A stretch of 64,000 bases of DNA from Candidatus Campbellbacteria bacterium. GTDB lineage: Bacteria; Patescibacteriota; Minisyncoccia; Phycocordibacterales; EsbW-18. The position numbers and the translations under genes are program-made. This document shows positions 967 to 36,475 of this stretch, one piece after another. Every line of letters starts with the position of its first letter. Position 1 is the first letter of the stretch. The notes under the pieces were generated by a model, which made no database searches, was not told the DNA's origin, and saw only the letters and a program-made list of their open reading frames with translations. Location of the stretch: positions 13,281-77,280 of the forward strand of contig JANLIT010000004.1 of assembly GCA_024653945.1 (NCBI GenBank), given 5' to 3'.

Positions 967-1040
967 GGCCTCATCGTCTAGCCTGGTTAGGACGTCACCC
1001 TTTCACGGTGAAAACTCGGGTTCGAATCCCGATGAGGTCA
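967..1040 (+). tRNA. tRNA-Glu(TTC); CCA not encoded
   Basis: Acceptor GGCCTCA/TGAGGTC; anticodon stem TCACC/GGTGA with loop CTTTCAC; T-arm TCGGGTTCGAATCCCGA. Confidence 0.85.
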
Positions 1041-1236
1041 CAACACAAAACAGGGCGCCCATATGGGGCGTTTTTGTTTTGTGTCTAGTGGACCGAAATA
1101 GCAGGCAAACTACTTTGCCTGCGTCGGAATTCGAATGACGGAGCATGTTTCGAGCATGGCGAGAAACAGCGAGTCACGTCCAGCAGTACTTATGAGCAAA
1201 GCGAATTAGTAACTGCGGGACGAATCCCGATGATAC
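1041..1236 (+). repeat. TLE downstream of tRNA-Glu: hairpin, conserved core, then a partial copy of the tRNA-Glu T-arm/3' end
   Basis: The hairpin ACAAAACAGGGCGCC/GGGGCGTTTTTGTTTTGT follows the tRNA directly; core motif AGTACTTATGAGCAAAGCGAATTAGTAACT is shared with the Gly, Trp and Lys copies; terminal GCGGGACGAATCCCGATGA resembles the tRNA-Glu 3' end. Confidence 0.55.
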
Positions 1237-1317
1237 GACAAAATACTTAGTGATCCGTGACCACAAAAAAGGAGATAAAAGTTATACACCCCACACATAT
1301 CACTTACATATCCAGAA

Positions 1318-1656
1318 GTGCTACTCTTAAAGAGACCTTATAAGTCATTACTTTTATTATTATTTTATAGTAACCATTTTATGGAACCACAATCAAACGT
1401 ATACAAATACGCAACATGGATTCTTGTCGTTGTTGTCATTATTCTCGGTGTCATGCTTAGTAGGAAGAATGCTGAGACCATCACAAGTCAACTTGGAGAT
1501 TCTACCGTTGACATTCAAGCATGTCGTGTAAAGGTTGCAACATGGCAAGAGGCAAATCCTAAAGGAACACCAGTCAGTGCAACGGCACAAGCTGAGCTCG
1601 ATGGTATTCTCGAGACATGTCTCGGTAGTGTTGAGGATGCTCAAGACAAAATATAA
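1318..1656 (+). CDS. hypothetical small membrane-anchored protein (likely start at Met 1381)
   Basis: ORF with one hydrophobic N-terminal segment, followed by a rho-independent terminator. Confidence 0.4.
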   Translation: MLLLKRPYKSLLLLLFYSNHFMEPQSNVYKYATWILVVVVIILGVMLSRKNAETITSQLGDSTVDIQACRVKVATWQEANPKGTPVSATAQAELDGILETCLGSVEDAQDKI

Positions 1657-1683
1657 AGTTAGAGAAATCTTCTCTCTTATGAA

Positions 1684-1716
1684 AACAGTTCCGACGCCGT
1701 GTCGGAACTGTTTTTG
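1684..1716 (+). terminator. rho-independent terminator
   Basis: Hairpin cagttccgacgccgtgtcggaactg followed by a T-run. Confidence 0.6.
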
Positions 1717-1784
1717 TATAGACAATTTGCTATACTCACCTGACCTCAATACGATGTCATCTGGTCTAAAAAGACCCTTATTTC

Positions 1785-3005
1785 ATGAAAATACTAGCAA
1801 TAGAAACGAGTTGTGATGAGACGGCCGTGTCCATTCTAGAGTGCTCTGGAGACGCCCATATGCCCTCCTGCGCCGTGCTGGGCACGGGTTTGTACTCACA
1901 GGCATCCAAACACGCCGAATTTGGTGGTGTCTTCCCCAACCTTGCAAAACGAGAACACCAACTAAACCTGACTTCGATGTTAAAAATCGCACTGAAGGAG
2001 TCAGGTTTAAGCACCAAGCACCAAGCACCAGATTCCAAACAAATTCAAAATTTCCAAACAATGCAAGAAATTTTAGAACGGGAGGAAACGCTTTTTAAGA
2101 ACCTACAAGAATATCTCTCAAAAAACCCAAATAATCCTGGGTTTGATGCAATTGCGGTAACCCAAGGTCCAGGTCTTGAACCGGCGCTGTGGGTTGGGAT
2201 TAACTTTGCAAAAGCACTTTCTTTTTTCTGGAATATTCCACTTGTTCCCGTCAATCACATGGAAGGACACATCCTTTCTGTCCTCTCGGACAGAAAGGAA
2301 AATTCCAATGATCAAATAACAAATAACAAAATAGCGTTTCCTGCTATTGCCCTGCTTGTCTCCGGAGGACACACGGAACTTGACCTCGTGCATGATTGGG
2401 GGACGTATGAGCTCATTGGGCAAACGCGCGATGATGCTGTTGGGGAAGCGTTTGATAAAGTTGCACGACTCCTCGGACTTCCCTATCCTGGTGGACCAGA
2501 AATAAGTCGCCTTGCGGCGGAAGCACGAAATCCGAAATCCGAAATCCGAAACACTATCCACCTTCCTCGACCAATGATTGACTCAAATGATTTTGATTTT
2601 TCATTTGCAGGACTTAAAACAGCCGTTCTCTACGCAGTCAAAAAACTTGGCTCGCTCTCTGATGAGCAAAAGAAAGAAATTGCATGTGAATTTGAAAACG
2701 CCGCAGTAGAAGTATTGGTTTCAAAAACAAAAAAGGCACTTGAACACTACAACGCCCCAACACTCATCATCGGCGGAGGCGTTGTCGCAAATACACATTT
2801 ACGTGAAGAAATGAAAAAAATGCTCGCACAGGAATTTCCTGATGTAACACTTCTTCTTCCCACCCACGAACTCTCCACAGATAACGCGGTCATGATAGGA
2901 ATTGCTGGGTACATTGCATATACAAAAAACCCCAACGAATATGGAGTCTTTTCACCTGAACACGGTGACCTGCGCGCACACGGAACCCTTAGACTCTCAA
3001 GTTAG
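1785..3005 (+). CDS. tsaD: tRNA N6-adenosine threonylcarbamoyltransferase TsaD (Kae1/Gcp family) with an insertion of about 40 aa
   Basis: ILAIETSCDETAVSI, GPGLEPALWVG and NHMEGH motifs; an extra segment sits between LKESGL and the GPG motif; an in-frame (gaaatcc)x3 repeat at 2526-2548. Confidence 0.85.
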   Translation: MKILAIETSCDETAVSILECSGDAHMPSCAVLGTGLYSQASKHAEFGGVFPNLAKREHQLNLTSMLKIALKESGLSTKHQAPDSKQIQNFQTMQEILEREETLFKNLQEYLSKNPNNPGFDAIAVTQGPGLEPALWVGINFAKALSFFWNIPLVPVNHMEGHILSVLSDRKENSNDQITNNKIAFPAIALLVSGGHTELDLVHDWGTYELIGQTRDDAVGEAFDKVARLLGLPYPGGPEISRLAAEARNPKSEIRNTIHLPRPMIDSNDFDFSFAGLKTAVLYAVKKLGSLSDEQKKEIACEFENAAVEVLVSKTKKALEHYNAPTLIIGGGVVANTHLREEMKKMLAQEFPDVTLLLPTHELSTDNAVMIGIAGYIAYTKNPNEYGVFSPEHGDLRAHGTLRLSS

Positions 3006-3668
3006 TTTGGGATTAGGTTCCATAACTAAAACCCGTGTCCTCTCAAAATCAGTAGGAATCAAACGAACCAACCGACGATTGACAAAATCTATTTGAAAAA
3101 TCATATCGTTTGCCTTCCAAGACCGTTGTAAACCGTTCGCTAAGAACAGATTCTGAAGGTCCACCATTTCGCGTTCAGTATCTTGTTTCAGCTGGTGTAT
3201 ATCCTCAGCACTCCATCCCGAAACCGCCACATCGAGTTCTTTTTTTGTATAGCCATCTACCTTCTCCATTAAAAAAATACTGTTCTGTTCACTCTCAAAA
3301 AAACCAATCGGTTTCGGCGCAGGTAGTCCGAGGGATTGGATGTATGAAAGGAGATTGTACTCATATAAAGGTTCCCCCGTCTCCTTCAGCATACTTTTTT
3401 CTCGGTTTGTCCACTTCGCAATCGGCGTGACAACCCTGTCTCCCTCTTCCCAATCAGGTAGCTGCCGTACTGCGCCAGGATCGTCGCGAAGAGAACCTTC
3501 TTTGTCATACTTCTTCTCACCACTTTTCATTGGTGTCCCAAGACGCTCGAAGTACCCGAGAGGATCTTGCCTTAATTCTAGGGGAACTAAAGAAGCGTAC
3601 TTCTCCCCAAATTCCATCTTGAATGGTTGATCTGAGGTTTCCGATGTATGAAAAGATTCAAGGCCCAT
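2997..3668 (-). CDS. hypothetical protein (possible kinase-like fold; weak)
   Basis: Long ORF; an IDF-containing segment is weakly reminiscent of Kdo/RIO-type kinase motifs. Confidence 0.3.
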   Translation of the reverse strand: MGLESFHTSETSDQPFKMEFGEKYASLVPLELRQDPLGYFERLGTPMKSGEKKYDKEGSLRDDPGAVRQLPDWEEGDRVVTPIAKWTNREKSMLKETGEPLYEYNLLSYIQSLGLPAPKPIGFFESEQNSIFLMEKVDGYTKKELDVAVSGWSAEDIHQLKQDTEREMVDLQNLFLANGLQRSWKANDMIFQIDFVNRRLVRLIPTDFERTRVLVMEPNPKLT

Positions 3669-3671
3669 ACG

Positions 3672-4754
3672 TTACACAATCAATAAATCTTTTGCGAGAA
3701 GAAGATAGTTGAAGTACGACAAGAAGACAATCAAAATAATGAGTGCGATGCCATGAGAAAATTCACGCGAGTGTCTTTTGTGTACTTGAAAGAGAACCAT
3801 CAACAATGTCACAAAAGCAAGTGCGAGTCCGATGATGATGTATCCCCAACGAACCACGGCTCGTGGTTGTGCTAAAAACTTCTCCCACGCATTTGTATAC
3901 GAAATTCGTTCAACGGGCATAATGACCTCCTCCTTAACTGAAGCTCCTGCCGTATTCGCATCTCGCGCTGGGGTAAACTCCTGTGCTAATGAAACATCTT
4001 GGGCCCCTTCTGGAGCTGGAGCCGGTACTTGGGTCACTGCTGTTGGGGTCACCTCCTGAACTACCACTGGCTCTGAAACGGTCTGCTGGGCTACAGCCAC
4101 GGTAGCTCCCTGTACCTCCTGTGTGCTCGCAACGGCAAGCGTAGGGGCAGTTTGAGCAATCACGGGGGCAACCGCGACTTGTGCTGGCGTACCAAAAAGC
4201 TGAACGACAAAAATGGTCTTCCTGTCCTTGTATTGCCCTGGGACAGCGGCAATACCTATTTCAGTAAAGGTCCCATTCATGATGTTTTCTCGGTGTCCTG
4301 GAGAGTTCATCCATGCTTGTTCAACGTCACCCGAGTCAACAAAGTTCACCGCCAAGTTTTCTCCCGCATTCACAAAATTGTATCCCGCTCGGTAAAACCA
4401 ATACCACGGATTGAGTCCGTCGGGACTTGTGTGTGCAAAATATTCGTTTTCCGCCATGTGCTCCGCCTTCATGCGTGCCGCCTTTTCCAAAATCGGACTC
4501 ACCGTCAAATCAGAAAGTCCTTCTGCTTCTCGGTCCTTGTTTGCAAGGTCAACAAGCACTCCGGGAACAACCGCTGCTGTAAATTCAATACTCGTACGAA
4601 TGAGAAGCGCTTGGAATACAGAAAAACCAAACGTGAGCACGAGAATCGTGGTAAGCGCAACAATACTTGCATCACGAACCATGTGTGGCTTGTGGTCGTT
4701 GCCTTCGTGCGGAATGAAGTAATCTTTAATATGTTTTCGCATAGCTGTTAGCAT
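3672..4754 (-). CDS. CAP/SCP (YkwD-like) domain membrane protein with a Thr/Val/Ala/Pro-rich linker
   Basis: CAP-domain motifs HTSPDG, GENLA, WMNSPGHRENIM; N- and C-terminal hydrophobic segments. Confidence 0.6.
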   Translation of the reverse strand: MLTAMRKHIKDYFIPHEGNDHKPHMVRDASIVALTTILVLTFGFSVFQALLIRTSIEFTAAVVPGVLVDLANKDREAEGLSDLTVSPILEKAARMKAEHMAENEYFAHTSPDGLNPWYWFYRAGYNFVNAGENLAVNFVDSGDVEQAWMNSPGHRENIMNGTFTEIGIAAVPGQYKDRKTIFVVQLFGTPAQVAVAPVIAQTAPTLAVASTQEVQGATVAVAQQTVSEPVVVQEVTPTAVTQVPAPAPEGAQDVSLAQEFTPARDANTAGASVKEEVIMPVERISYTNAWEKFLAQPRAVVRWGYIIIGLALAFVTLLMVLFQVHKRHSREFSHGIALIILIVFLSYFNYLLLAKDLLIV

Positions 4755-4763
4755 GAGTATATC

Positions 4764-5414
4764 CTACTTCGTATCGTCGCTATCAACAAGTGTCGCGTAG
4801 ACAACAAGTACTCGGTCGTATTCCTGTGTCTCTTGGCTATATGTTCCTGAGCAGGTAATAAGACGCAAACCTGGAAACGTTATATCGCCGTATACTTTTT
4901 CTGTCGGAAAATTGCTTCTATCGTACCGTTCAAGTACTGTTACACGAAATGTTGCTGTTGTTCCGTCTGCGCGATCTACATACACATAGTCGCCTTCTGT
5001 GAGTTGACCAAGAGATAAAAACACACCAGGGCCTTCATACGAGTCAACATGTCCGAGCACAACAGCAGGACCAATTTCACCAGGTGTCGGACCATAGGTG
5101 TACCATCCAACTTCTGTGTATCCTTTTGGAATTTCAATTTCACCATTTTCTTGCAGACCAAGAGGAACAAAATTAGTGTCCACAAATATATCTGGAATAC
5201 GCAAACGCATTGGGTCTGAATCTTCAAGCGGGCGCGCTGGATCAAAAATCGGTCGTGAAGATGTTGCAAGAGTTTCTTGAGAATTTTTTTGTGTCAAATA
5301 TGTGGTGACACCTCCTTGTGATGCTATAAGGATTCCAAAACCAACGACAAGCAACACAACGCCCACAGATATAAGTACTTTTTTTGTGTTCATTTCTGAA
5401 TTAAACAACATCAT
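4764..5414 (-). CDS. sortase family transpeptidase
   Basis: N-terminal TM anchor; His motif VVLGHVDS; catalytic TLxTC motif LRLITCSG; conserved downstream Arg. Confidence 0.75.
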   Translation of the reverse strand: MMLFNSEMNTKKVLISVGVVLLVVGFGILIASQGGVTTYLTQKNSQETLATSSRPIFDPARPLEDSDPMRLRIPDIFVDTNFVPLGLQENGEIEIPKGYTEVGWYTYGPTPGEIGPAVVLGHVDSYEGPGVFLSLGQLTEGDYVYVDRADGTTATFRVTVLERYDRSNFPTEKVYGDITFPGLRLITCSGTYSQETQEYDRVLVVYATLVDSDDTK

Positions 5415-5482
5415 ATTCGCTGTACATGGTAACTCTTTTTGCCCGTTGTGTCAACCCCATCGTGGGTTGGGGCCGTCTTAAT

Positions 5483-5559
5483 GCAAAACCCGCCCAAAAG
5501 GCGGGTTTTGCGCTTTTTTGTTTTCCGAAGCGAAGCTTCCCTTTTGGAAGCTTCGCTTC
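5483..5559 (-). terminator. tandem perfect hairpins downstream of the 605-aa surface-protein gene
   Basis: 12-bp stem GCAAAACCCGCC/GGCGGGTTTTGC and 14-bp stem GAAGCGAAGCTTCC/GGAAGCTTCGCTTC; the second hairpin recurs at 7488-7520. Confidence 0.6.
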
Positions 5560-5572
5560 TTGTTTTAAATCT

Positions 5573-7390
5573 TTAGTAAAGACACATCTTCAATCCTCCA
5601 AATCCTGTAGCAGGAGCACCGAGTGGAAGAATGGATGTTTGCTCACCCAAGACCTCACCAAGAACCTCTCCGCCACCATCTGTGGATGAGTTTCGACGAC
5701 GGAAGCCACTTCCTCCACCGTCGTCGTCATCGTCTCCGTTTGTATCATCACCACCAGTATCTTCGTGAGAATATGAGTTGGTGAATGTACATGTTACATC
5801 CTGATCTTCAGAGAGATACACAGTTACAGACCTCTCTGGTTTATTCGTGTCATACTCAGTTCCATAGTTACAACTAATGAGAGACAGGCTCCAATCAACA
5901 CCTGCATCTACTTCACTGATTGTGTACGTTCCTGAAGAAAGATTCGACAGTACCTCAGGTTCATCATTTGCAGAAAGATCAAACGATGATTCATCCCAGT
6001 AATTAAATGTAAATATGTGGGTTCCATCCGCACCTTCGTTTACCTCCTTGTCAATTGTGATTGAACCTCCGTTCTGATGATTACCAAAGTCCTTGAGCGA
6101 GAAGGTGCCGGGTGTTCCTTCTCCGTCGCCCTGAATCCGATGTCCAACAGTGCCGTTTGCGCAGGTAACCGTTCCGTCCGAAGCGGAAATCGGCGAGGTC
6201 TGTTCCCAACCGCTTTGGACCTCTTCGCAGACAACGTAATTAAGCTCTGGGTCTAAACTGTCGAAGGAGTAGTTGCCGTCGCCATCGGTCGTAGTCGTGT
6301 CCGCGGGCGTCTCTTCGATTACAGTCGTATCTTCGTCGATTGTGTACGGGAACAGGTTGATGGTCCATCCGTCGATGCCGGATTCGTCATCGCTCTGCCG
6401 ATCGCTGTTCACGTCGTTCCACTTCATGCCAGTAACAATGGATCGCGTGGTATTGGTAAAGGTACAAGTCACATCATCGCCACTTTCCACAGTGATTCGT
6501 TCGCCATCTTCAACGGCACTACCAGTGCTATCACCATCGTAAATACATTCTACGTCGGCTAATTGCCAGGCGCTCTGCTGGGTTTCCAGAACATCATATG
6601 TTCCAGGAGCGAGGGAGATGGGACTGGAAGTCGCGGTGTTATCTTCTGGGTCAGCGTCAGGTGTAAGATCAACCCCGTACAAGAACACGGTTGGATCTAT
6701 TCCCGTCACCAAAAATTCAAAGTTGGGGGTCCTTCTAGGGTCAACTGGCTCACCTTGCACGAGACCTTGAAAATCCCCAATCTTCACAATCGTAAGGGTT
6801 GCTGGAGGTATACATGTCTCGCTGTCCACAGTCAGTCTGAATATAACTCCTGCTGGATTACCCGGTCCGTCGGGTTCGTCGTTTGTTGCCTCAATCGTCA
6901 GCGTGTTCGTACCGCTCAAAAGAGAGCTGGCTGGGATAGGGTGTGTTCCAACAATCTGCCAATTGTCACCAGAGCCTACCGCATTGCCGTTGATGGTGAC
7001 AACGTAACTGTTGTCCGCGGTGATATCAAGAGAAGCTCCTGTTGGTGTTCCAACAATCTCAAACGTTCTCGTGAAGGTCAGCGTGCCGGCTGGGTGCGAG
7101 CCTGTGTCATCGGCAGGGACTTTGTCTGCATCCCAGATCCACGTAGCACCTGATGGAAGTGGATCATAGTCATCCCATACGGAGTGTGGAGTAACAGCAA
7201 CCGCATTACCACTACCTACTTGTGTTTCCGAATCACTGACAAGTGTCTGTGTGCTTGGGTCACACGCTGGTGCTACCGTTGCATTTGCGTTCAGTGGACT
7301 AAAAGAAAATACCCCAATAAAAAGAAGTGCGCCCAAAAGCCCCAGCCCAATAGTTCGATGTGTTTTATACGATGTAGTAATGAGAGCCAT
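5573..7390 (-). CDS. secreted adhesin-like surface protein (605 aa) with SdrD-B/Cna-B-like domains; paralog of the 1639-aa gene upstream
   Basis: Signal peptide MALITTSYKT...NANA; SdrD-B/Cna-B-like segments with Thr-Cys-Thr-Phe-Thr-Asn (TCTFTN) motifs and GMKWNDVNSDRQ; C-terminal 45 aa identical to the paralog (ends LPLGAPATGFGGLKMCLY). Confidence 0.7.
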   Translation of the reverse strand: MALITTSYKTHRTIGLGLLGALLFIGVFSFSPLNANATVAPACDPSTQTLVSDSETQVGSGNAVAVTPHSVWDDYDPLPSGATWIWDADKVPADDTGSHPAGTLTFTRTFEIVGTPTGASLDITADNSYVVTINGNAVGSGDNWQIVGTHPIPASSLLSGTNTLTIEATNDEPDGPGNPAGVIFRLTVDSETCIPPATLTIVKIGDFQGLVQGEPVDPRRTPNFEFLVTGIDPTVFLYGVDLTPDADPEDNTATSSPISLAPGTYDVLETQQSAWQLADVECIYDGDSTGSAVEDGERITVESGDDVTCTFTNTTRSIVTGMKWNDVNSDRQSDDESGIDGWTINLFPYTIDEDTTVIEETPADTTTTDGDGNYSFDSLDPELNYVVCEEVQSGWEQTSPISASDGTVTCANGTVGHRIQGDGEGTPGTFSLKDFGNHQNGGSITIDKEVNEGADGTHIFTFNYWDESSFDLSANDEPEVLSNLSSGTYTISEVDAGVDWSLSLISCNYGTEYDTNKPERSVTVYLSEDQDVTCTFTNSYSHEDTGGDDTNGDDDDDGGGSGFRRRNSSTDGGGEVLGEVLGEQTSILPLGAPATGFGGLKMCLY

Positions 7391-7487
7391 ATGTATATGA
7401 TTAGTGACCCACCTTTAGTGGCGAGCTCTGATTAATTAACAACTTTTATTAAAATACTTTTCCCGAGGGTTAAACCTCTGCTTAAAA

Positions 7488-7520
7488 GAAGCGAAGCTTC
7501 CCTTCTGGAAGCTTCGCTTC
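7488..7520 (-). terminator. hairpin downstream of the 1639-aa gene; duplicate of the hairpin at 5527-5559
   Basis: GAAGCGAAGCTTCC-CTTCT-GGAAGCTTCGCTTC perfect stem; a REP-like GAGGGTTAAACCTC lies next to it at 7465-7478. Confidence 0.55.
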
Positions 7521-7534
7521 TTGCTTTTAAATCT

Positions 7535-10500
7535 TTAGTAAAGACACATCTTCAATCCTCCAAAGCCTGTGTTTGGAGCTCCGAGTGGAAGAATGGATGT
7601 TTGTTCACCCAAAACCTCACCAAGAACCTCTCCGCCACCATCTGTGGATGAGTTTCGACGAAAACCTGAGCTTCCGCCACCATTACTTCCACCACCATCG
7701 TCTGTTGTAATTGTAGGATTTTGGTGGTTACCGAAGTCAATACCAACCAGAGAATCTCCTAGAGAAAGTTCCACTTCATGGCCGGCCCCTTCACCCTGAC
7801 AGAGCGTGTTGCCCGACGGGTATGTCTTCTCCCATCCGTCCTGGCCCGTCTCACAGACTATGTATGTGTCTGGAATAAGGTCGGAGAATGAGTAGTTTCC
7901 ATCAGCGTCGGTTTCCGTTGACACGATGAACCCGCCTTCACTATCGTTTGAAGCGTGGATCGCCCAGCCCTGAAGACCTGGTTCACCCGAATCCTTGATA
8001 CCATCAGCGTTAAGGTCATTCCACTTCATACCCGAGATTGAGCCTCTGTCATCATCGTTTGTAAAGACACACGTAATTGTTTCTCCGTTAGACAGAACAA
8101 TGTTGCCTGAATTAATATCGGTGTGTCCTGTGTCATCTGATGTACACGATACACTTTGAAGATTCCATCCAGGTAGAACTGTCTCAGTCACTGAATACGA
8201 GGTGCCAACATTAAGGTCACCACTGTTGTGTTCCTGATTTGCTTCAAGCAAGAAGTTATCAGTACTCCAACTTGGGTCAAATTCAAACGCAGTGTTTGTG
8301 TCGCTTACTTCTGTCACCTCCTTGCGAACGATAATTCGTTCGCCATCATCGTCATCGTCGTCTCCACTTGTTTGAGGGTCATAGGTGTTGGTGAATGTGC
8401 AGGTAACGTCTTCATCCTCACCAAGTGTAATTTCAACATCACCTTCACCTAGGTCGTGAAAAAAATCAACGTCGTCGCCACAATCAACATCCGTGACATA
8501 CCAATCGTCGTCGGTGCTAGTTAATTCAGTAACGATATAGCTTCCAGCTACAAGACCTGAGAATGTTTCTGGATCATTGCTTGCTGTAAGGAGTATGTCG
8601 TCATCGCCCCCATCGAGGTCAAATGAGAATGCTTCATCTTGACTTCCCCCCACAACAACCTTATCAATCGTAATAGAACCTCCGTCCTGGTGATTGCCGA
8701 AATCAAAACCATCTCGGTCATCAGTACCTGTGTCAATAATAAGTTGGTACCCAACACCATCATCACACGCTACAGCATATCCGTCAGAAATCTCTGGTGA
8801 TGTTTGATTCCAACCACTTCCTTGTGCTTCACACACTTTGTAATCGCCATAAGAAATATTGAACTGGTAGTAACCGTCTGAATTTGTTTCCATTGAGCCA
8901 ACGAGGACATCCTCGTCATCATAGATATTGATAGTCCAACCTTCAATTGTTGGTTCGTCGTAATCTTTGTATCCATCATTATCAAGATCGTTGTACTTCA
9001 CACCATTGATGTTTCCTTCACCACCTCCCTGTTGTCCGTCTCTCTCGTTGATAAGGTTGAAGGTGTACACACCCTGATCACTGTCGATATTCCAAACAGT
9101 ACCTCCTCCCGCACCACTGAAGTATGACCAGCCATCCTGCATAACTTCGTCCACAGTGTACTCATCAAGAGCAACATCATTGAAGGTTACACAACCTGTT
9201 TCATCAGTAATACCTGTGTACCCCTTGTAGATATCAACCGAGAGTGTTCCTGAGTTATCATCAAACCATCCTGGGTTCTGCACACCACTATCACCATCAA
9301 AGATGGTAAATGGTACTGGACCAGTAACGCTTGGTGTGAACCCTTGGAGGTATGCATGTGGAGTATTGTATGCACCCCAGTTGCCGAATCCAAGTCCACT
9401 AAAGTCGCCACCAATGTTGAGTTCAAGAATTTCTGTTGGGTACCCTGTGTATCCGTCCATCTGGGTTGCCCAAGAATCTATTGTAGAGTATTCAGAGTCA
9501 ACAAGGTTTGCACCACCTTGGTTACTCCACGTACCGTCTGCAAAAGCAAGGTATGATGTTCCCGCGTCAAGCGATGTTGAGTCAGTACCGTTGATATCCT
9601 CTGAATCAACAATCAAGTCCGATTCTACAGAATCACCCTTGAGGAAGACCGTCCATCCTGAAAGACCCTCGTTCTGGCCCACCTCATACTTACAAATCGT
9701 AACTTCATTGTGGTGTTCTGGTTCTTGTGGTGGCACACAGAAGAGCGCCACGTTGTCGAGGAACGTCCCCTCGGAGTTTGGAGTACCGAGGTCTTTAAAT
9801 GCGATGTCTGTTGAACTGTCTCCGGCTACAAATGAGTGTGCATACGTGTTCCATACCGTGTTTAGATTTGCACTTCCATCAAGACTCACCGCGTTAAGCA
9901 CGTTGCCATCTTGTGAGACTTCAAGATTGTTTTCTGAAGTTCCTGTTCCTGGTCGTGGAGAGAATGCGTATGAAAGTTGATACGTTCTTCCTGGAACCGT
10001 TGCAATAGCTTCTGAAATGATAGTTGATGCCTCTTCACCATTTGGACCACTTGCGTGACCGTTCCAATCAGAATCGAGCTCAGCGTACTGTTCAAGCTCA
10101 TATGGCAACCATCCGTTTACTCCACCGTGAAGTTCTGCATTTGCTGTAGCGGGAGCGCCTACAAATGCACCCGCCCATGCAACCGTCCAATCAAGACCTG
10201 AAAAACCTGAAGCAAAGATGTCCCATCCAGAACCATCGGTAACGTCTGGCAATTCAAATCCTCCGTTTGCAATAAGATTTTGTTCAGGATTACACTCGCG
10301 AGCGTTCACAAGGTTAAATGTTTGTGTGGGTTCATTTACTGTGACCTGACTTCCTGCATTAGTTGCATCATCTGCATCAGTAAGGTTTTCCCAACCCTCC
10401 TGCATAAATTCATCAAGAGTATATGTGCCATAAGGAACCGCTTCAAATGACACACAACCATCTTTATTCGTTGTTCCTGAATAGTCGTGTTCATCAGTAT

Positions 10501-12454
10501 CATCGGCCATAAATGTATCATCACCGACATACTCATCAAGCCACACCTCCCAATCTGAGAGAAGGTTTTCTGGGTCAACTGAGTTTTCATACTTACAAAT
10601 CGTTATGTCTGATGTGTCTTCAACTGGTGGTTGCTCACAAGATGTCTGCTCTTCACCGTTCACCACAAGTTGGTAGATACCTGCTGCGGGGTTCCTTTCA
10701 GGAAGCTGTTCGTATCCTGCCATACCAATGTTTTCAACCGTCAATTCAATAGTGTTCCATCCTGAATCAACATAACTGGTGACATCCGTAGGACCAGTAA
10801 CAGCTCCATAGTTAAATTCGGTTATGTTTGAGATAACAGGGTCACCGTTGATAGTAATCCAGTAGCGGTTATCTGCAGCAAGATTAAGAGTTGCGTCGTT
10901 TACAGGACCGTCAACAAAGAAATCTTTTGTAAATGTTTTTGCCACAGTTTGTGATCCGTCAACAACTTGATAGCTGTCCCAAATCCAAGTAGCTACACTG
11001 TTGAGTGCTGTGGTCCATGCACCGTGAATCCACGCGGCAACTGCATCACCGTTACCAACGCCTTCGTCACCCGCTTCACTCACCACCTCTACACGACACG
11101 CTTCTGCCACCAAGATAGGAACGTTCCACGCAACACAGTAGTAGTCTGTGTCCGGTGTGGTGCTAAGCCATTCCCAGTTATCATAGTGAAGTATGTCATC
11201 AGAACAATAGATTTCTGCTGAAACATTTTCTGTTGTGTTTTGACCTGTAAAAGGAATGTAATTTGCGTCAAAAAGTTCACGTACACGAAGCTGACTATCG
11301 TTTGAAATATCAACCACTGCAGTACCAGCAACAAATGCTGTCCATCCTGCTCCTGCTGAGCCTGGAGTATTGTCGTCAGGGTCTCCAGCGGTGCTGTAAC
11401 TCCATTCAAAGTCCCACGGAACGAGCTGACAGCCGTTATTTGGGTTTGCTGCGAGCCAGCGAGTTGCAGTATTTGATGTCACAGTTGTAAGTGTTGATGT
11501 ACCTGCGCCCCAGTTTGGAAGGTCACTTTCTTCATCACACTCAATTTTTTGTGCGTGAAGGGTAACAGTTTCTTCTGATGGAACGACGCCTTCGTTATAT
11601 GCAACACAGTGGGCAGTTCCGTCAGTGGGAACGAATGTAAGCTCTTGGTTATCGTTTGTACCAGAAGTATCTCCGTCACCTTCACAGTAAAGACCTAAAA
11701 CATCTTCGTTTGGAAGTTTGTTACCGGCGCCGTCGGTTTCAACAATAAGATAGCGTCCAGCTGATGGGAGATTGTCTATAGTGAGTATTCCGCTACCGTT
11801 TGTTGAACCATCTTCAATGAATGGTCCGTCTAATTCTGGGTAAGGACCATCGGTATCATCTGCTTCGCCGTGAACATACCCAAAAGTCTTGCCCGACTGC
11901 AAAGCACATGCTTCTGGTACATCTCCGCCTACACCATTATCGTCGCGATTTACGGTTGTACCGTCAGGACACACGTATTTTGTAATTTCAATTGAACCCG
12001 TTGGGTCATCACTGCCTATATCTTCACAAGCATCCCCGATATTATTCTGATTTCCGTCTACCTGATCTGGATTTACAGCATTTACACAGTTATCACATGC
12101 GTCTCCAACACCATCCCCATCTGCATCTTCTTGGTTAGGATTTGCAACCTCAGAACAATTATCTGAGTCATCGGGAATATCATCATCGTCTGTGTCTACT
12201 GGATCTGGTGCGGGACAAGCGCCACTTTGATCGGGCATAACATCTCCGTGGTCAAGATGTGTTTGAAGAGCGTTTGCATTAAAGGTTAACAAAGAGAAAT
12301 TGCCGTCGTCGTCTTTGTGACAAACAGTAACATCTCCTGCTGGTTGTGCATTTACTAACGAGCCAAAAGAAAACACTCCAACAACAAGGAGTGCGCCCAA
12401 AAGCCCCAACCCAATAGTTCGATATGTTTTATACGAGGTAGTAATGAAAGCCAT
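7535..12454 (-). CDS. giant secreted adhesin-like protein (1639 aa) with thrombospondin type-3-like Ca-binding repeats and several SdrD-B/Cna-B-like domains
   Basis: Signal peptide; D-rich DxDxDG/NC..NP.Q repeats (about aa 83-150); segments with TCTFTNT/TCVFTND motifs and GMKWNDLNADG; C-terminus identical to the 605-aa paralog. Confidence 0.75.
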   Translation of the reverse strand: MAFITTSYKTYRTIGLGLLGALLVVGVFSFGSLVNAQPAGDVTVCHKDDDGNFSLLTFNANALQTHLDHGDVMPDQSGACPAPDPVDTDDDDIPDDSDNCSEVANPNQEDADGDGVGDACDNCVNAVNPDQVDGNQNNIGDACEDIGSDDPTGSIEITKYVCPDGTTVNRDDNGVGGDVPEACALQSGKTFGYVHGEADDTDGPYPELDGPFIEDGSTNGSGILTIDNLPSAGRYLIVETDGAGNKLPNEDVLGLYCEGDGDTSGTNDNQELTFVPTDGTAHCVAYNEGVVPSEETVTLHAQKIECDEESDLPNWGAGTSTLTTVTSNTATRWLAANPNNGCQLVPWDFEWSYSTAGDPDDNTPGSAGAGWTAFVAGTAVVDISNDSQLRVRELFDANYIPFTGQNTTENVSAEIYCSDDILHYDNWEWLSTTPDTDYYCVAWNVPILVAEACRVEVVSEAGDEGVGNGDAVAAWIHGAWTTALNSVATWIWDSYQVVDGSQTVAKTFTKDFFVDGPVNDATLNLAADNRYWITINGDPVISNITEFNYGAVTGPTDVTSYVDSGWNTIELTVENIGMAGYEQLPERNPAAGIYQLVVNGEEQTSCEQPPVEDTSDITICKYENSVDPENLLSDWEVWLDEYVGDDTFMADDTDEHDYSGTTNKDGCVSFEAVPYGTYTLDEFMQEGWENLTDADDATNAGSQVTVNEPTQTFNLVNARECNPEQNLIANGGFELPDVTDGSGWDIFASGFSGLDWTVAWAGAFVGAPATANAELHGGVNGWLPYELEQYAELDSDWNGHASGPNGEEASTIISEAIATVPGRTYQLSYAFSPRPGTGTSENNLEVSQDGNVLNAVSLDGSANLNTVWNTYAHSFVAGDSSTDIAFKDLGTPNSEGTFLDNVALFCVPPQEPEHHNEVTICKYEVGQNEGLSGWTVFLKGDSVESDLIVDSEDINGTDSTSLDAGTSYLAFADGTWSNQGGANLVDSEYSTIDSWATQMDGYTGYPTEILELNIGGDFSGLGFGNWGAYNTPHAYLQGFTPSVTGPVPFTIFDGDSGVQNPGWFDDNSGTLSVDIYKGYTGITDETGCVTFNDVALDEYTVDEVMQDGWSYFSGAGGGTVWNIDSDQGVYTFNLINERDGQQGGGEGNINGVKYNDLDNDGYKDYDEPTIEGWTINIYDDEDVLVGSMETNSDGYYQFNISYGDYKVCEAQGSGWNQTSPEISDGYAVACDDGVGYQLIIDTGTDDRDGFDFGNHQDGGSITIDKVVVGGSQDEAFSFDLDGGDDDILLTASNDPETFSGLVAGSYIVTELTSTDDDWYVTDVDCGDDVDFFHDLGEGDVEITLGEDEDVTCTFTNTYDPQTSGDDDDDDGERIIVRKEVTEVSDTNTAFEFDPSWSTDNFLLEANQEHNSGDLNVGTSYSVTETVLPGWNLQSVSCTSDDTGHTDINSGNIVLSNGETITCVFTNDDDRGSISGMKWNDLNADGIKDSGEPGLQGWAIHASNDSEGGFIVSTETDADGNYSFSDLIPDTYIVCETGQDGWEKTYPSGNTLCQGEGAGHEVELSLGDSLVGIDFGNHQNPTITTDDGGGSNGGGSSGFRRNSSTDGGGEVLGEVLGEQTSILPLGAPNTGFGGLKMCLY

Positions 12455-12814
12455 ATGTATATGATTAGTGACCTACCTTTTTGGGTAGGCTATTAAAAAC
12501 GTTTTTTATAAAAATACCCCTGTGTACAACTAATTATCCCTCTACAAACCGTCTCCACCTCGGAGATCAAATTTTTCTAAAGATTACACCGTCATTTTAA
12601 TCTAGTCAAGCCCCACAAGTCAAAGACATTTTTAAAGATTTTGTGTATAGACGGTGGATAATAATACAATACAAAAGAATAATTGTGTCAAACGACTTTC
12701 CTGTTCATTGACAAAATTCTTTTTACTCATTTTGATAATTTTCTTTTTTCTCACCCCATCCTTTTCAACACAACAAAAAGAGTTCAATCCCCCACCCCAC
12801 CAAGATTAATATCT

Positions 12815-12852
12815 CCCAAAGGTTAAACCTTCGCAAAGGTTTAACCTTTGGG
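12815..12852. repeat. REP-like palindromes (2 copies) of the family CAAAGGTT(T)AAACCTTYG
   Basis: caaaggttaaaccttcg followed by caaaggtttaacctttgg; the same palindrome family flanks the RAYT gene. Confidence 0.65.
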
Positions 12853-12867
12853 TACCATACATATCCA

Positions 12868-12996
12868 TAAAGGACATTATAAAAGACATTTAAATATGGA
12901 TGCGATGTTTATATTTTTATAAAGGACATAAAGGACATTATCTCGCCCCACCTTCCACCACCAAAGGTTAAACCTTTGGGCGTTGCGTCCTTTATA
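12868..12996. promoter_or_regulatory. array of five TAAAGGACAT-like direct/inverted repeats in the intergenic region upstream of the giant adhesin gene
   Basis: taaaggacat at 12868, 12920 and 12929; taaaagacat at 12879; inverted copy gtcctttata at 12987. Confidence 0.35.
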
Positions 12997-13043
12997 AAAA
13001 TTTCATCCCTGTGGTGTAAATTACCGAACGAAGGTTTAACCTT
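12961..13043. repeat. two REP-like palindromes at the 5' side of the RAYT gene
   Basis: ccaaaggttaaacctttgg (12961-12979) and cgaaggtttaaccttcg (13027-13043). Confidence 0.65.
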
Positions 13044-13052
13044 CGTAAATCT

Positions 13053-13710
13053 TATGGGAAGAAAAGTGGCACTTGCTCTGGGTGAGTTTTACCATCTCTA
13101 TAACCGGGGCGTCGAAAAAAGAATAGTTTTCACTAATAAATATGACTATGATCGTTTTTTGTCCCTGATGTATCTATGCAATACCACAAAATACGTAGAT
13201 GCTCGAGAGCAAGGAGGTACGCTTCAAAAAGCCTACAGAACAAGGGGTGGCAATCGAATAGTTGATATCTGTACGTATTGCCTTATGCCAAACCATTTTC
13301 ACATTCTCATAAAGGAAATGGCCGAGGGTGGTGCCAGTAAATTTATGCAAAAACTAACCACAGGATACACAATGTACTTCAATAAACGATATAAACACAC
13401 CGGGGCACTTTTTCAAGGAACATACAAATCATCACACGCAAATACCGACCAATATCTTTCCTACCTTATTGCGTATATTCATCTCAATCCTGTCAAAATT
13501 ATTGAACCGAACTGGAAAAAAGACGGCATCCTGAATTTACAAAGAGCTGAAATGTACCTAAAAGAATACCCGCACTCAAGTTATCTCGACTATCTCGGCA
13601 AAACACGCGTTCATAATTGCATCATAAATAAGAGTGCTTTGCCTGAGTACTGTAGTACTCCACAAGATTTTATGGAAAGTGTTAAAACTTGGCTCTCCCC
13701 GAAGGTTTAA
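13053..13710 (+). CDS. REP-associated tyrosine transposase (IS200-like Y1 transposase, RAYT)
   Basis: HuH motif NHFHILI and catalytic-Tyr region YLIAYIHLNPV; flanked on both sides by REP palindromes; the ORF track starts at 12976, but the two 5' REPs lie inside that extension, so Met 13053 is preferred. Confidence 0.75.
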
Positions 13711-13734
13711 CCTTCGCGAAGGTTAAACCTTCGG
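13700..13734. repeat. two REP-like palindromes overlapping the RAYT stop codon
   Basis: cgaaggtttaaccttcg and cgaaggttaaaccttcg. Confidence 0.65.
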
Positions 13735-15970: not shown

Positions 15971-16666
15971 ATGCCGATCTTTCAATCAGTTGTCATAGCA
16001 TTTTTAGGAGGATCCATCCCCGCCTTTTTTTGGCTTTGGTTTTGGCTACGTGAAGATAGAAAACACCCAGAACCTCGGCATCTTTTGGTAGCTTGTTTTT
16101 TTCTTGGTATGGCCGGCGTAGTGGTTGCAATTCCCTTGGAAAAAGCAGCCGAGCTCATTTCAACCGCTCCCCTTTTTATATTTATTGTATGGGCGCTTAT
16201 TGAAGAGTCCCTCAAGTATGGTGCTGCCTACATCGGTGGCATGCACACACAAGCAGAAGATGAACCTATTGACGCAATGGTGTACTTGCTCACGGCCGCA
16301 CTTGGATTTGCAGCAGCAGAAAATATGCTCTTCCTCCTCAACCCACTTATTGAAGGCGATGCGTTCGTGGGAATACTCACAGGAAACATCCGTTTTATTG
16401 GAACATCACTCTTACATGTGGTTGCTTCGTGTGTTATTGGAGGTATGGTTGCTCTTTCCTTTTACAAAAAGAAAAAAATACGCCACGAATACTTTTTGGC
16501 CGGACTTATCGGTGCTGTTGCCCTTCACACAGCATTCAACTACTTTATTGTGCAGGGTGGTGCTGGTGGTCTTTTCTATGTGTTTGCAATGCTCTGGATA
16601 CTCGTCATTGGGCTCATGCTCTTGTTTGAAGACGTAAAACGTGTCCATCCACAGGGTGTGGTGTAG
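15971..16666 (+). CDS. PrsW-family intramembrane metalloprotease
   Basis: Multi-TM protein with EExxK (EESLK) and FxxxE (FAAAEN) motifs. Confidence 0.6.
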   Translation: MPIFQSVVIAFLGGSIPAFFWLWFWLREDRKHPEPRHLLVACFFLGMAGVVVAIPLEKAAELISTAPLFIFIVWALIEESLKYGAAYIGGMHTQAEDEPIDAMVYLLTAALGFAAAENMLFLLNPLIEGDAFVGILTGNIRFIGTSLLHVVASCVIGGMVALSFYKKKKIRHEYFLAGLIGAVALHTAFNYFIVQGGAGGLFYVFAMLWILVIGLMLLFEDVKRVHPQGVV

Positions 16667-21137: not shown

Positions 21138-22814
21138 CTACAATTCTTCTGGACTTGGTGCAATAGGTTTTGTGCGCCAGAATTTAACATGGACTGTTTG
21201 CCACATCTCTGCAAGCTCGTTATTTTTTAGACCAATGAGCACCAAAACACCCGCGGCCACTCCAACAATACCCGCACTTACTCCGTGCACAAGAACTCCA
21301 GCGAACGAATCAAGATTTATAAAAGGTTCAAGCACATGTAGGGTCATATACGCACCCGCTCCAGCGATTATTGAAGCAGCAAAACTTTGCCAAAACGTTT
21401 TATACATACTAGAAGGAAGGTGGCCACCGAAATCGTGTCTGAAAAGTAACCAGAAAGCGGTCGCATTGCACATCATGCCAACGGTATATCCAAATGAAAG
21501 CATAATAATAACAGCACCAGAAACATCGCTGATACGAAAGAGTGATTCCACAAAAAACCGTACCCCTTCAAATGAACGGTAGAGCCACACACTCCCGTAC
21601 GCAGTAAGAAGTGTGAGGACCGATGTAGAAACATTAATCCAAAACGGTCGAGCCGTTTTTCCAGCAGCATAGTACCCACGAACAAAAAGTAGCACCAAAC
21701 TATGTGCAACAAGTGAGACCACAAGCATTGCCATTACTGCGGCAGTTAAACGTGTTGCTGACCAATCAAATGCACCCGATCCCAACAGAAGGCGGACGAT
21801 GTGTGCACGCAATACGATAAATAACACAGTTGCCGGGAGAGACCAAAAGAGAATGTGCCGAACAGCAACTAATAAATGATCTATAAAAACGTCTCGCTTC
21901 CCTTCTGAAAAAAGATTTACCAATGTCGGAAATGCCGCAACAGAATATGAAACACCAATAATGGTGAGTGGTGCAAGATTAATATTTAATGCAAATGTAA
22001 ATACAGCAATGGACCCTTCAGGAAAACGCGACGCCATACCAATGAGTATCATTAATATAATTTGATCGAACGCGAGAGTCATTGTCCGTGGAATAGAAAC
22101 CATAACCAATAATTTAATATCTGGCCATGAAATGGTACGTGTAAGTTTTGGCACAAGTCGCTCTTTGATAAGAGTGGGAATTTGCACACAGAGGTGGAGC
22201 ACGGCGCCAAGAACGACACCGTACGTAAGTCCTTGAATTCCAAACATCGGATACAGCACCACGACACCAACAATAATACCGATGTTATACACAAGCGGAG
22301 AAATCGCGTACACAAAAAACTTTTTTGTAATTTGAGTAACGCTCGCCACAATGTTAGAAAGACCAAGAAATATTGGAGAAAGAAGAAGAATTCGTGTCAG
22401 CATAACCAATGTGTCGTGTTGTTCTGGTGAAAATCCTGGATACAGAAAATCTGAAAGAGCTGGAATGAAAAACCACAGAACAGCACTCACGCCAACCATG
22501 AAGAATGTGAATACGGTTGTTATCTCAGAAAGAAAACGGCGAGCATCCTCCCTATCATCTATTTTTTTTGCAAGAAACGGAATAAGAACGAATAGAGACA
22601 CAAATGACGCGATGGACGCAAACACCACGTCTGGAATTCGAAAGGCGGCATAGTACACATCTAGAGTCGCGCTCGCTCCAAAGGCATGGGCCAGCAACCT
22701 ATCTCGAATAAGCCCCAGAACTTGTGATGCAAGCGAGAAAATGGCAATAGTATATGCCGCCTGGTGAAGACCCTCTATTTTTGTTGAAAAAAGTGCAAAA
22801 AACCTTTGTATCAT
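21138..22814 (-). CDS. murJ: lipid II flippase MurJ (MviN)
   Basis: About 14 TM helices; MurJ N-terminal signature ...LIRDRLLAHAFGASATLDVYYAAFRIPD... Confidence 0.85.
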   Translation of the reverse strand: MIQRFFALFSTKIEGLHQAAYTIAIFSLASQVLGLIRDRLLAHAFGASATLDVYYAAFRIPDVVFASIASFVSLFVLIPFLAKKIDDREDARRFLSEITTVFTFFMVGVSAVLWFFIPALSDFLYPGFSPEQHDTLVMLTRILLLSPIFLGLSNIVASVTQITKKFFVYAISPLVYNIGIIVGVVVLYPMFGIQGLTYGVVLGAVLHLCVQIPTLIKERLVPKLTRTISWPDIKLLVMVSIPRTMTLAFDQIILMILIGMASRFPEGSIAVFTFALNINLAPLTIIGVSYSVAAFPTLVNLFSEGKRDVFIDHLLVAVRHILFWSLPATVLFIVLRAHIVRLLLGSGAFDWSATRLTAAVMAMLVVSLVAHSLVLLFVRGYYAAGKTARPFWINVSTSVLTLLTAYGSVWLYRSFEGVRFFVESLFRISDVSGAVIIMLSFGYTVGMMCNATAFWLLFRHDFGGHLPSSMYKTFWQSFAASIIAGAGAYMTLHVLEPFINLDSFAGVLVHGVSAGIVGVAAGVLVLIGLKNNELAEMWQTVHVKFWRTKPIAPSPEEL

Positions 22815-24508: not shown

Positions 24509-25300
24509 ATGACTTTTTGGTACCCAGTGCGATATACTAACCTTATGTCCGAGGAAAAAACCACTGAAAAAAAGATTTCCGTGCAAGATTTGCACCAAGC
24601 TGTGTCGTATATTAAAACACTCATTTTAGATGAGGAGCACTTACTTGATGATACCGAGCATCTTAAAAAGATTCTTTCACAAGCATCTGTTGGTTTTGAC
24701 GCAGAAAAAGATCATGACGTGATTGAAAAACTTCACTCCCAGCTCCACTACCTACGCACAATGGTGTACAAAGACGAGTTGACAGGAATTCTCAACAGAC
24801 GCGGTATTCATGAAGAATTTACCTCATTCTTTGAAGAGGCAAAATTTAGTGAAGAAAATAAGGGTAAAAGAACGGGAGTCACCATTCACGACTTCTCTAT
24901 TCTTTTTATTGATTTGGATAATTTCAAAAATATTAATGACACATTGGGACATGATGCGGGAGATGAAATACTAAAAAAAATTGGCTCTATACTCAAAGCC
25001 GATATGCGTGACACTGATGCAGTTGGTCGTTTTGGAGGTGAAGAGTTTGTTGTTGCCATGCTCGGTACAACAGAGGATGATGCCTATATAAAAGCTGAAA
25101 AAATAAGAGCGCACATTGAGGGAACACTTTGTCTTGAGCCTTCTGCGTGTGTAACTGCAAGTATTGGCGTCGCTTCACTCCACACCACAAAAGCAGAAAC
25201 ACTGGAGCGGTTGATAACCTTTGCCGACCAAGCTATGTACGAAGCAAAAACAAAAAGAAGTAAAAATAATGTCGTAAAATATAGTGAGTTGAAGAAATAA
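24509..25300 (+). CDS. GGDEF-domain diguanylate cyclase with N-terminal coiled coil
   Basis: LTGILNRRG, DLDNFKNINDTLGH and RFGGEEF (GGEEF) motifs; alternative start near 24545. Confidence 0.75.
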   Translation: MTFWYPVRYTNLMSEEKTTEKKISVQDLHQAVSYIKTLILDEEHLLDDTEHLKKILSQASVGFDAEKDHDVIEKLHSQLHYLRTMVYKDELTGILNRRGIHEEFTSFFEEAKFSEENKGKRTGVTIHDFSILFIDLDNFKNINDTLGHDAGDEILKKIGSILKADMRDTDAVGRFGGEEFVVAMLGTTEDDAYIKAEKIRAHIEGTLCLEPSACVTASIGVASLHTTKAETLERLITFADQAMYEAKTKRSKNNVVKYSELKK

Positions 25301-33662: not shown

Positions 33663-33684
33663 TAGCTGTTTTTAAATATAACGT

Positions 33685-34629: not shown

Positions 34630-34717
34630 AGTGACTATTTTTATTTAATTACTTGTACGAGCGTTTAACTATTTACGGGTATAAACAAGGCACTATGTGC
34701 CGTGGGTAAGAATATTT

Positions 34718-34996
34718 CTATTCTTTTGGTTGTTTTTTATCTTTTTGATCCCGTATTAAATCAGCAATAAAATAAGAGTCGGCAAATTGGCCTCGACTAT
34801 TTTTATAGACAGTATAGCCGTCATAAATTAATCTGCCTGATGGAGTAAATCTGTCTTTTCCATCAAAAAAACCATGTTCACTTACCAGTTCCCAACCAAG
34901 TTCAGATGCACTCTTATCAAATTCCTCCGTATGGTTGTCAACGGATTTTTTTACCTCTTCATGCTCACTACTAGGCATTTCCATTTTATTTTCCAT
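34718..34996 (-). CDS. hypothetical small protein (island gene 3)
   Basis: ORF only; acidic N-terminus. Confidence 0.3.
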   Translation of the reverse strand: MENKMEMPSSEHEEVKKSVDNHTEEFDKSASELGWELVSEHGFFDGKDRFTPSGRLIYDGYTVYKNSRGQFADSYFIADLIRDQKDKKQPKE

Positions 34997-35052
34997 GTTT
35001 ATATAAATTAAATTCGTATAATTAATAACGATTATACTATTAGTCTTATACT

Positions 35053-36027: not shown

Positions 36028-36138
36028 ATGCTCTAATACTAAGCATATTATCTACCTTACACAAGTGCGTCTTAAATCGTGTGATTAAGTCCCACACCTA
36101 GAATAATTCTTTTTTATTGCTACAATAACGCTATTCCA

Positions 36139-36472: not shown

Positions 36473-36475
36473 AAC

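Follow-up and report, generated by a model that had tools for sequence, protein, structure and literature searches.

In a Candidatus Campbellbacteria bacterium, adhesin-like paralogs encoded beside a class F sortase end in a shortened, putative sorting signal

A 64,000-nucleotide stretch of contig JANLIT010000004.1 from a Candidatus Campbellbacteria bacterium (assembly GCA_024653945.1, positions 13,281 to 77,280; hereafter the window) carries three neighbouring open reading frames (ORFs) on its minus strand, which encode a class F sortase of 216 amino acids (aa; 4764..5414) and two secreted adhesin-like paralogs of 605 aa (5573..7390) and 1639 aa (7535..12454). The sortase, the only one in the window, begins 158 nucleotides (nt) downstream of the 605-aa gene. 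Both paralogs end in ...GEVLGEVLGEQTSILPLGAP[A/N]TGFGGLKMCLY followed by a TAA stop codon, nine residues past the TG of a sortase-type pentapeptide. Here, we describe this unusually short tail, its relatives in other genomes and the ways in which it might be processed.

The product of the sortase gene scores 182.4 bits against the NCBIfam class F model (NF033748, class_F_sortase; cutoff 166) as compared with only 17–23 bits against the class E, GN and D models, matches Pfam Sortase (PF04203) at 7.5e-19 (68 bits), and is 100% identical to the NCBI entry “class F sortase [Candidatus Campbellbacteria bacterium]” from a metagenome-assembled genome. An N-terminal membrane helix at about residues 7–34 precedes the catalytic domain, which starts at about residue 60 and contains His122 (LGHVDS) and Cys188 (LITC), both invariant in 33 homologs. 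The candidate catalytic arginine, R201, varies in more distant class F homologs and lies 13 residues past Cys188, the same spacing as between Cys184 and Arg197 in SrtA of Staphylococcus aureus. No sortase of known structure comes close to it in sequence: phmmer found zero matches among the structures in the PDB, and a PDB profile search reached at best SrtD of C. perfringens (4d70, E=2e-4), whose GH and TC motifs align with those of the window protein. Foldseek comparison of an AlphaFold2 model (mean predicted local distance difference test score 83.5, predicted template modelling score 0.72) with the PDB retrieved exclusively sortases among the top 50 matches (E 7e-9 to 2e-7), consistent with the sortase beta-barrel. 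Judged by its translation, profile matches and predicted structure, the enzyme is a class F sortase, for which transpeptidase activity is predicted.

The 605-aa protein has a predicted signal peptide at residues 1–37 (cleavage after ...NANA, before T), nine Cys residues, a rhamnosidase N-terminal-like beta-sandwich (79–190) and SpaA_4, SdrD_B and DUF5979 domains. The signal peptide of the 1639-aa protein spans residues 1–36 (cleavage after ...VNA, before Q), and its 31 Cys residues are distributed over a protein with thrombospondin-3-like repeats, a DUF642/choice-of-anchor-C domain, and SpaA, SdrD_B and DUF5979 domains in several copies. Because of the signal peptides and the SpaA, SdrD_B, DUF5979 and DUF642 domains, both are regarded as adhesin-like surface proteins, the usual clientele of sortases. 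The protein bodies share 30–37% identity, and this only where they can be aligned, whereas the gene ends far exceed chance similarity. At the 5′ side, the same 19-nt leader, GGTCACTAATCATATACAT, precedes both start codons (7391..7409 and 12455..12473, both minus strand), and 27 of the N-terminal 35 residues are identical. At the 3′ side, the last 41 residues agree at 40 positions and the last 126 nt at 118, and the common cassette extends about 48 nt beyond the stop codon to include a hairpin of 14–16 bp, located at 5527-5559 after the 605-aa gene and at 7486..7522 (16 bp, no strand assigned to either) directly after the 1639-aa gene, where it is followed by TTTT on the gene strand. A shared leader, signal peptide and 3′ cassette around mosaic bodies are the pattern expected of gene duplication with subsequent gene conversion of the ends.

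The tail itself is built from a pre-tail module and a stub. In the 605-aa protein, an R/S-rich element, a GEVLGEQ box and APATG (GFRRRNSSTDGGGEVLGEVLGEQTSI-LPLGAPATG; 5603..5707, minus strand) are followed by FGGLKMCLY and TAA, with a Cys at position −3 from the end (5573..5602, minus strand); the corresponding module of the 1639-aa protein is GFRRNSSTDGGGEVLGEVLGEQTSILPLGAPNTG-FGGLKMCLY plus TAA (7535..7666, minus strand). No other ORF of the window ends in this way. Nine residues are all that follows the pentapeptide, so the tail contains no hydrophobic segment, and it has no basic end either: truncated tails of this kind have 0–1 K/R in the last six residues, whereas relatives with a canonical signal have 2–3. 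The window tail also gave no match at E<=10 to GVDTG_CTERM (NF058571, cutoff 29 bits). An initial annotation of this DNA, made from the letters alone, had correctly placed the three ORFs and recognised the sortase, the two secreted multi-domain paralogs, the identical leaders and an APATG/APNTG tail that stops nine residues past TG with neither hydrophobic segment nor positive end. Other details need correction. The catalytic motif is not TLITC, the active-site string being GLRLITCSG; the N-terminal 35 residues are not identical; and the proposed identical C-terminal module of 45 aa is interrupted by a one-codon indel (GFRRRNSS in the 605-aa protein, GFRRNSS in the 1639-aa protein) and by the A/N exchange, although the close identity of the last 41 residues stands.

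A word-indexed search with the 76-aa tail returned no matches. Syntenic loci were gathered via the sortase, by DNA-pattern scans with the tail and, in place of the word-indexed search, by comparing 1.84 billion representative proteins exhaustively with HMMER. Two groups emerged. The truncated-tail group comprises nine proteins from eight lineages, namely those of the window and of loci L001/L002, L014, L003, L004, L012/L013, L016-18 and L019. The canonical-tail group comprises sister lineages and more basal ones (L009, L010/L011, L020, L021, P0128-P0130 and L005-L008). Here, the same module runs on into a hydrophobic segment and, in most proteins, a K/R-rich end (e.g. ...VPAGAPATGMGGMAGSVSTLGSLFTLLGGFALTAGRRK), as in ...GEVLGAQTSTIPAGVPNTGAGGMAAEGANAFGMILSLFGGLALFAGKKKF of L009 and ...GEVLGEQIALVPAGAPATGMGGMAGSVSTLGSLFTLLGGFALTAGRRK of L010; hydrophobic segment and basic end are both present in six tails (L009, L010, P0129, P0130, L020 and L021). 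Canonical relatives have 24–31 residues after TG, with a maximum Kyte-Doolittle mean over 15 residues of 1.5–2.6, and their pentapeptide is xP[AND]TG, mostly AP[AND]TG with VPNTG in L009. Against GVDTG_CTERM their tails score 25.6, 16 and 8 bits, weak matches that all lie below the cutoff. The ancestral signal can be written as [R/S-rich]-GEVLGEQ-x3-(L/I/V)P-x-G-A-P-(N/A)-T-G-x-G-G followed by about 20 hydrophobic residues and a K/R tail.

Compared at the sequence level, the truncated tail is a shortened derivative of this genuine sortase sorting signal. The suggestion of the initial annotation that it might be a non-canonical sorting signal is borne out to the extent that the tail is homologous to the sorting signal of its relatives, and the alternative of a different C-terminal export tag becomes unneeded, the module being the shortened canonical signal of the same sortase family. 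Less successful was the idea that the RRR ahead of the motif is a displaced positive tail. The R/S-rich element upstream of GEVLGEQ occurs in both groups and is no substitute for the missing positive tail, because canonical relatives that have their own hydrophobic segment and K/R tail possess it too.

Three observations on the canonical-tail loci are recorded for completeness. P0135 (845 aa) has a variant canonical tail, VPLGAAAAGAGG, that is devoid of any PxTG. The tails of L005-7 have acidic instead of basic ends (...GFATKGEELEE, ...RAVRDEEETI), and a sortase was not found downstream within their short contigs. In L009, the genes directly upstream of the adhesin-sortase pair (1004-6781) form a cluster resembling those of type IV pili (T2SSE ATPase, T2SSF and several N_methyl pilins).

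The short tail is conserved in position, length and sequence. The stop codon follows TG after nine residues in both window proteins, L001/L002, L014, L003, L004, L012/13 and L016-18, and after 11 residues in L019; it is TAA throughout, and AP[AN]TG is invariant in all nine tails. The stubs read FGGLKMCLY, FGGLNMCFY, FGGLKMCFY, RGGLRMCIE, RGGLQMCIN, FGGLQMCLF and FGGMSRNSCEL; after TGxGG they follow the pattern L-x-M-C-x-x-stop, with M-S-R-N-S-C-E-L-stop in L019. The unvarying residues are specified by different codons (P by CCA, CCT and CCG; G by GGA, GGT, GGC and GGG; L by TTG, CTC, CTA and CTG), and this synonymous turnover indicates purifying selection on the tail peptide. Every truncated-tail gene lies 112–197 nt upstream of a class F sortase gene or, in the case of the 1639-aa protein, of its tandem paralog, and the class F sortase is present in 8/8 lineages even though the enzymes have diverged to about 55% identity. 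The HMMER search recovered six truncated-tail proteins only, all of them at sortase loci. Tails of this type in the absence of a sortase, which the initial annotation had named as evidence against its proposal, were thus not encountered among the collected loci.

In a neighbour-joining (NJ) tree of concatenated sortase, CAP, tsaD and valS sequences, the seven loci with nine-residue tails form a clade with 78% bootstrap support and the canonical-tail loci lie outside; like the sortase tree described below, it is an NJ tree, and the trees comprise few taxa. The basal sortases of L020, L021 and L008 go with canonical tails. The tail types of P0028 and P0012 were predicted from the first sortase tree and subsequently confirmed; the organism with P0028 recurs in 33 index blocks of the public contig index. 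L019, whose placement has 35% support, may represent a second, independent truncation. On these trees, the truncation is clade-specific and derived from the canonical state. Apparent H-to-F/Y and F-to-Y differences near the catalytic Cys of the sortase vanished when two more canonical-tail loci were added.

A further regularity concerns the cysteines. The Cys at −3 is found in every truncated tail (contexts MCLY, MCFY, MCIE, MCIN, MCLF and SCEL), including that of L019, whose stub differs in both length and sequence. The total number of Cys residues is odd in 8/8 truncated-tail proteins (9, 31, 21, 19, 23, 27, 15 and 17, the last obtained after repair of a frame break in L016) and even in 7/7 complete canonical-tail proteins (12, 10, 20, 36, 18, 8 and 8). 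The simplest reading is that the Cys residues of the body would be paired in disulfides and that the tail Cys would be an extra, unpaired thiol. The initial annotation had noted neither the Cys at −3 nor this parity, nor that the truncation is derived and confined to a clade.

We propose, with a probability of roughly 0.6, that the class F sortase is dedicated to the two paralogs encoded beside it and still processes their sorting signal, a lineage-specific, minimised form of the three-part signal found with this sortase family in other Parcubacteria. The adhesins would be exported by Sec and lose their signal peptides, after which the membrane-anchored sortase would recognise (L/A)PxGAP(N/A)TG, cleave between T and G and release the decapeptide G[F/R]GGLxMCxx. 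Transfer of the adhesin to the cell wall might proceed through lipid II, for which the window encodes the flippase MurJ (21138-22814, minus strand) and YceG/MltG (46344-47279, minus strand). Because the stub cannot span the membrane, other means of retention would be needed, and the precursor might be held near the enzyme by its free Cys, by translocon capture or by slow removal of the signal peptide. The most likely candidates would be a transient disulfide that joins the free tail Cys to a partner in the membrane, or capture of the precursor by the translocon itself. A more specific and much more tentative version holds that the unpaired tail Cys, as a covalent tether, takes over the function of the transmembrane helix and positive tail and keeps the C-terminus at the membrane up to T|G cleavage by the class F sortase. 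Such a tether would probably be a mixed disulfide that persists for long and is formed with a thiol-disulfide oxidoreductase of the membrane, situated at the translocon, or alternatively a lipid link; given that L019 combines another stub with the same −3 Cys, this solution may have arisen twice.

Several points weigh against continued processing by the sortase. In S. aureus, work by Schneewind reportedly found that proteins deprived of the hydrophobic segment and charged tail are secreted but not anchored, and a stub of nine residues would therefore be expected to abolish sorting. In the standard model, translocation is arrested by the hydrophobic stretch together with the charged tail, and this enables cleavage by the sortase (PMC4617865). 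At the locus itself, the sortase has a promoter-like site of its own and terminator-like hairpins lie between the sortase and adhesin genes, and the sortase may thus be transcribed apart from the adhesins. The order sortase-CAP-tsaD with nearby valS is conserved as a block, housekeeping genes included, and the adjacency of tail gene and sortase is therefore partly inherited synteny. A sortase-only NJ tree of 122 leaves gives no resolved monophyly of the truncated-tail loci. No active-site residue of the sortase covaries with tail type among the compared loci, which means that no adaptation on the side of the enzyme is seen. Finally, the locus offers no partner for the tail Cys, as the sortase contains its catalytic Cys only and the CAP protein has none.

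The main alternative is that the sortase has ceased to act on the tail and that the adhesins are secreted and then released or held non-covalently; the initial annotation, too, had considered release in place of membrane retention. The conserved tail would then have another role, such as in folding, in the binding of a partner or, via its free Cys, in dimerisation, and the adhesins would now be soluble or directed at a host. The stub, unable to cross the membrane and without a basic end, fits this view, and proteins truncated in this manner are secreted according to the classical model (PMC4617865). If the tail is retained, its unpaired Cys could mediate dimerisation or attachment, and the physiological roles of class F sortases are described as unknown even in cultured actinomycetes (PMC13251363). 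We nevertheless consider release unlikely. AP(N/A)TG and xGG have remained invariant across lineages whose sortases are only about 55% identical, under synonymous turnover, as would be expected of a motif in use; the sortase is intact and adjacent in all eight lineages; and a motif kept for another role would not be expected to match that of the canonical-tail sisters.

Alternatively, the C-x-x end might itself be the anchoring signal, its Cys being lipidated or linked to the envelope independently of the sortase, in resemblance to Cys-containing signals processed by Rce1-like intramembrane proteases. This would account for the −3 Cys being both invariant, although tail length and sequence vary, and the unpaired one. 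A gene for a PrsW-family intramembrane protease lies nearby (15971-16666, plus strand), beside valS, and PrsW proteins share a superfamily with Rce1/CPBP. Four Cys-containing C-terminal signals handled by Rce1-like enzymes have been described by Haft (10.1101/2023.06.07.544157), but all of them are three-part and keep a transmembrane segment and an Arg cluster, and the window tail has neither. Moreover, wherever the gene tables reach, the PrsW gene keeps its position beside valS at canonical-tail loci (L010/L011) as well as at truncated-tail loci (L003, L012 and L016-18), and is thus not specific to truncated tails. L-x-M-C is a poor lipobox, and the retained sortase motif would be left unexplained, so that this possibility appears distinctly improbable.

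That the short tail is an artefact or the end of a decaying pseudogene, produced by assembly error, nonsense or frameshift mutation, an alternative code or programmed readthrough into a normal anchor, is practically excluded: metagenome assemblies can hold errors and the frame of the ortholog in L016-18 is broken by 1 nt in an A7 run close to the 5′ end, but the stop occupies the identical position in independent assemblies from NCBI, JGI, ENA and Logan, TAA is a stop in all bacterial codes, terminator-like hairpins follow within 10–40 nt, no frame downstream encodes a hydrophobic or basic segment, and the synonymous-only changes at conserved residues indicate purifying selection.

Two further possibilities were considered and rejected. 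Rescue of an anchor by readthrough or frameshifting finds no hydrophobic frame in the downstream DNA, which diverges and forms the terminators, and a simple frameshift of a canonical tail does not generate the stub, since the other frames of four canonical tails give nothing like L-x-M-C-x-x. Separately, two truncated-tail lineages show irregularities at the 5′ end of the adhesin gene. In L016, L017 and L018 (around 7294-7400), the codons for the signal peptide (MSHKLLTKVKVGIGVILPVLFVFGATVSIANAKK-stop) and those for the adhesin body are in different frames, offset by 1 nt; the break falls in the A7 run immediately past the ANA cleavage site, and a run of A8 would reopen the ORF. It was read in L016 and L017, which are identical over this stretch, and is indicated in L018 by an identical gene call, the sources being JGI, ENA and NCBI, and could reflect slipped-strand phase variation or transcriptional slippage rather than error. 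In L012 (around 4530-4570), an ATG (MKSSKI...) lies ahead of the GTG called as the start of the 847-aa adhesin, in a frame shifted by 1 nt; this ATG would give an L004-like N-terminus, possibly a sign of a further frame break or an assembly error.

Placed beside known systems, the locus shares with the canonical three-part LPXTG signal the signal peptide, the C-terminal xPxTG, the multi-domain Ig-like adhesins, the adjoining membrane-anchored sortase and the lipid II machinery. Unlike that signal, its tail has neither membrane-spanning stretch nor basic end, and so is missing two of the three defining parts; its recognition element, GEVLGEQ...(L/V)PxGAPxTGxGG, is much longer, and its stub has the invariant unpaired Cys at −3. 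The Parcubacteria sisters (L009, L010, L020, L021 and P0128-P0130) have the same module up to TGxGG, including the R/S-rich element, the same sortase subfamily and the same adhesin-sortase-CAP order, but differ in having 20–22 more residues beyond TGxGG, a K/R end and even Cys counts. GVDTG_CTERM, which the window tails do not match, is approached by canonical relatives at 16–25.6 bits. The class F sortase of Propionibacterium (Cutibacterium) acnes, like the window enzyme, belongs to NCBIfam class F and has a single N-terminal membrane anchor. It is the only class F sortase studied biochemically (Di Girolamo 2019, as cited in PMC8225981 and PMC13251363) and reportedly recognises an LPXTG-type motif (PMC8225981), whereas the window motif is APxTG within a longer box and the window substrates have no anchor. 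MYXO-CTERM and related signals resemble the window tail in having an invariant Cys in a short C-terminal element; they retain a transmembrane segment and Arg cluster and are handled by Rce1-like proteases, whereas the window tail has neither segment nor cluster and its Cys follows the sortase motif, three residues from the end. A search of the available literature library found no description of GVDTG-type or candidate phyla radiation sortase signals or of the truncated tail. Overall, these comparisons set the window tail apart as a probable variant, rather than a member, of the three-part sortase signals and of GVDTG_CTERM.

The remaining features of the locus surround the three genes. Just downstream of the sortase lies a gene for a CAP/YkwD-family membrane protein with 0 Cys (3672..4754, minus strand); a CAP/YkwD gene directly follows the sortase in all related loci with downstream sequence, whichever the tail type, and the pair may be a functional unit. 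The putative sortase promoter (5426..5454, minus strand) is a sigma-70-like TTGACA-17-TACCAT proposed by consensus match only, at 10/12 positions, and a TTGACA ... TATCAT/TATTAT element occupies the equivalent position in L001, L003, L004 and L016. Two hairpins (5482..5559, no strand assigned) separate the 605-aa gene from the sortase, the one nearer to the sortase being a GC-rich terminator, AAAACCCGCC/GGCGGGTTTT (5482-5512), that is kept in orthologous loci. A promoter-like site lies ahead of the 1639-aa gene (12594-12623). Small hairpins are located about 17–20 nt before both adhesin start codons, at 7410-7430 (CCACC...GGTGG) and 12474-12495 (CCTACC...GGTAGG), and likewise in L001, L003, L004 and L012, where the stems vary yet pair (e.g. 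CTTGC/GCAAG and CCGCC/GGCGG); the pre-ATG hairpin may be a conserved element of the 5′ untranslated region. The adhesin starts have no evident Shine-Dalgarno sequence at the usual spacing. An Rfam scan of leaders and intergenic regions yielded nothing above gathering score, the weak matches being terminator hairpins, and the surroundings of the adhesin genes gave no cyclic di-GMP riboswitch or member of another Rfam family.

Elsewhere in the window, the palindromic element AGGTTTAACCT occurs in 13 copies (<=1 mismatch) as against 1.3 expected. Copies cluster at 12820-13042 and 13703-13730, flanking an ORF for an IS200-like Y1 transposase (12976-13710, plus strand), and one lies at 7467-7477. 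The arrangement looks like that of repetitive extragenic palindromes with their associated transposase (REP/RAYT). The same Y1_Tnp gene is found between valS and the adhesin gene in L012 and L016-18, and similar AGGTTTAACC hairpins lie 3′ of the adhesin genes in L001 and L016. A GGDEF diguanylate cyclase is encoded at 24509-25300 (plus strand). Six ORFs of 283–437 aa within 32802-38431 and 47282-48595 gave no Pfam match at E<=1e-4 (32802-33662, 33685-34629, 35053-36027, 36709-37560, 37571-38431 and 47282-48595).

To our knowledge, every curated prokaryotic C-terminal sorting signal has been described as a three-part arrangement of motif, membrane segment and basic cluster, of which the membrane segment is thought to let the sorting enzyme catch its substrate. 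The tail described here is of interest because the standard model predicts that it should fail, and the locus appears to be a natural, conserved exception that would allow a direct test of whether membrane retention is required. For users of sortases in protein ligation, a natural tag that is short and free of an anchor could be of interest as well. For the enzyme family, the locus provides a class F sortase with defined candidate substrates in its neighbourhood and with an extended recognition box. Attachment to other cells is the presumed lifestyle of Campbellbacteria-like bacteria, and surface adhesins are probably central to it.

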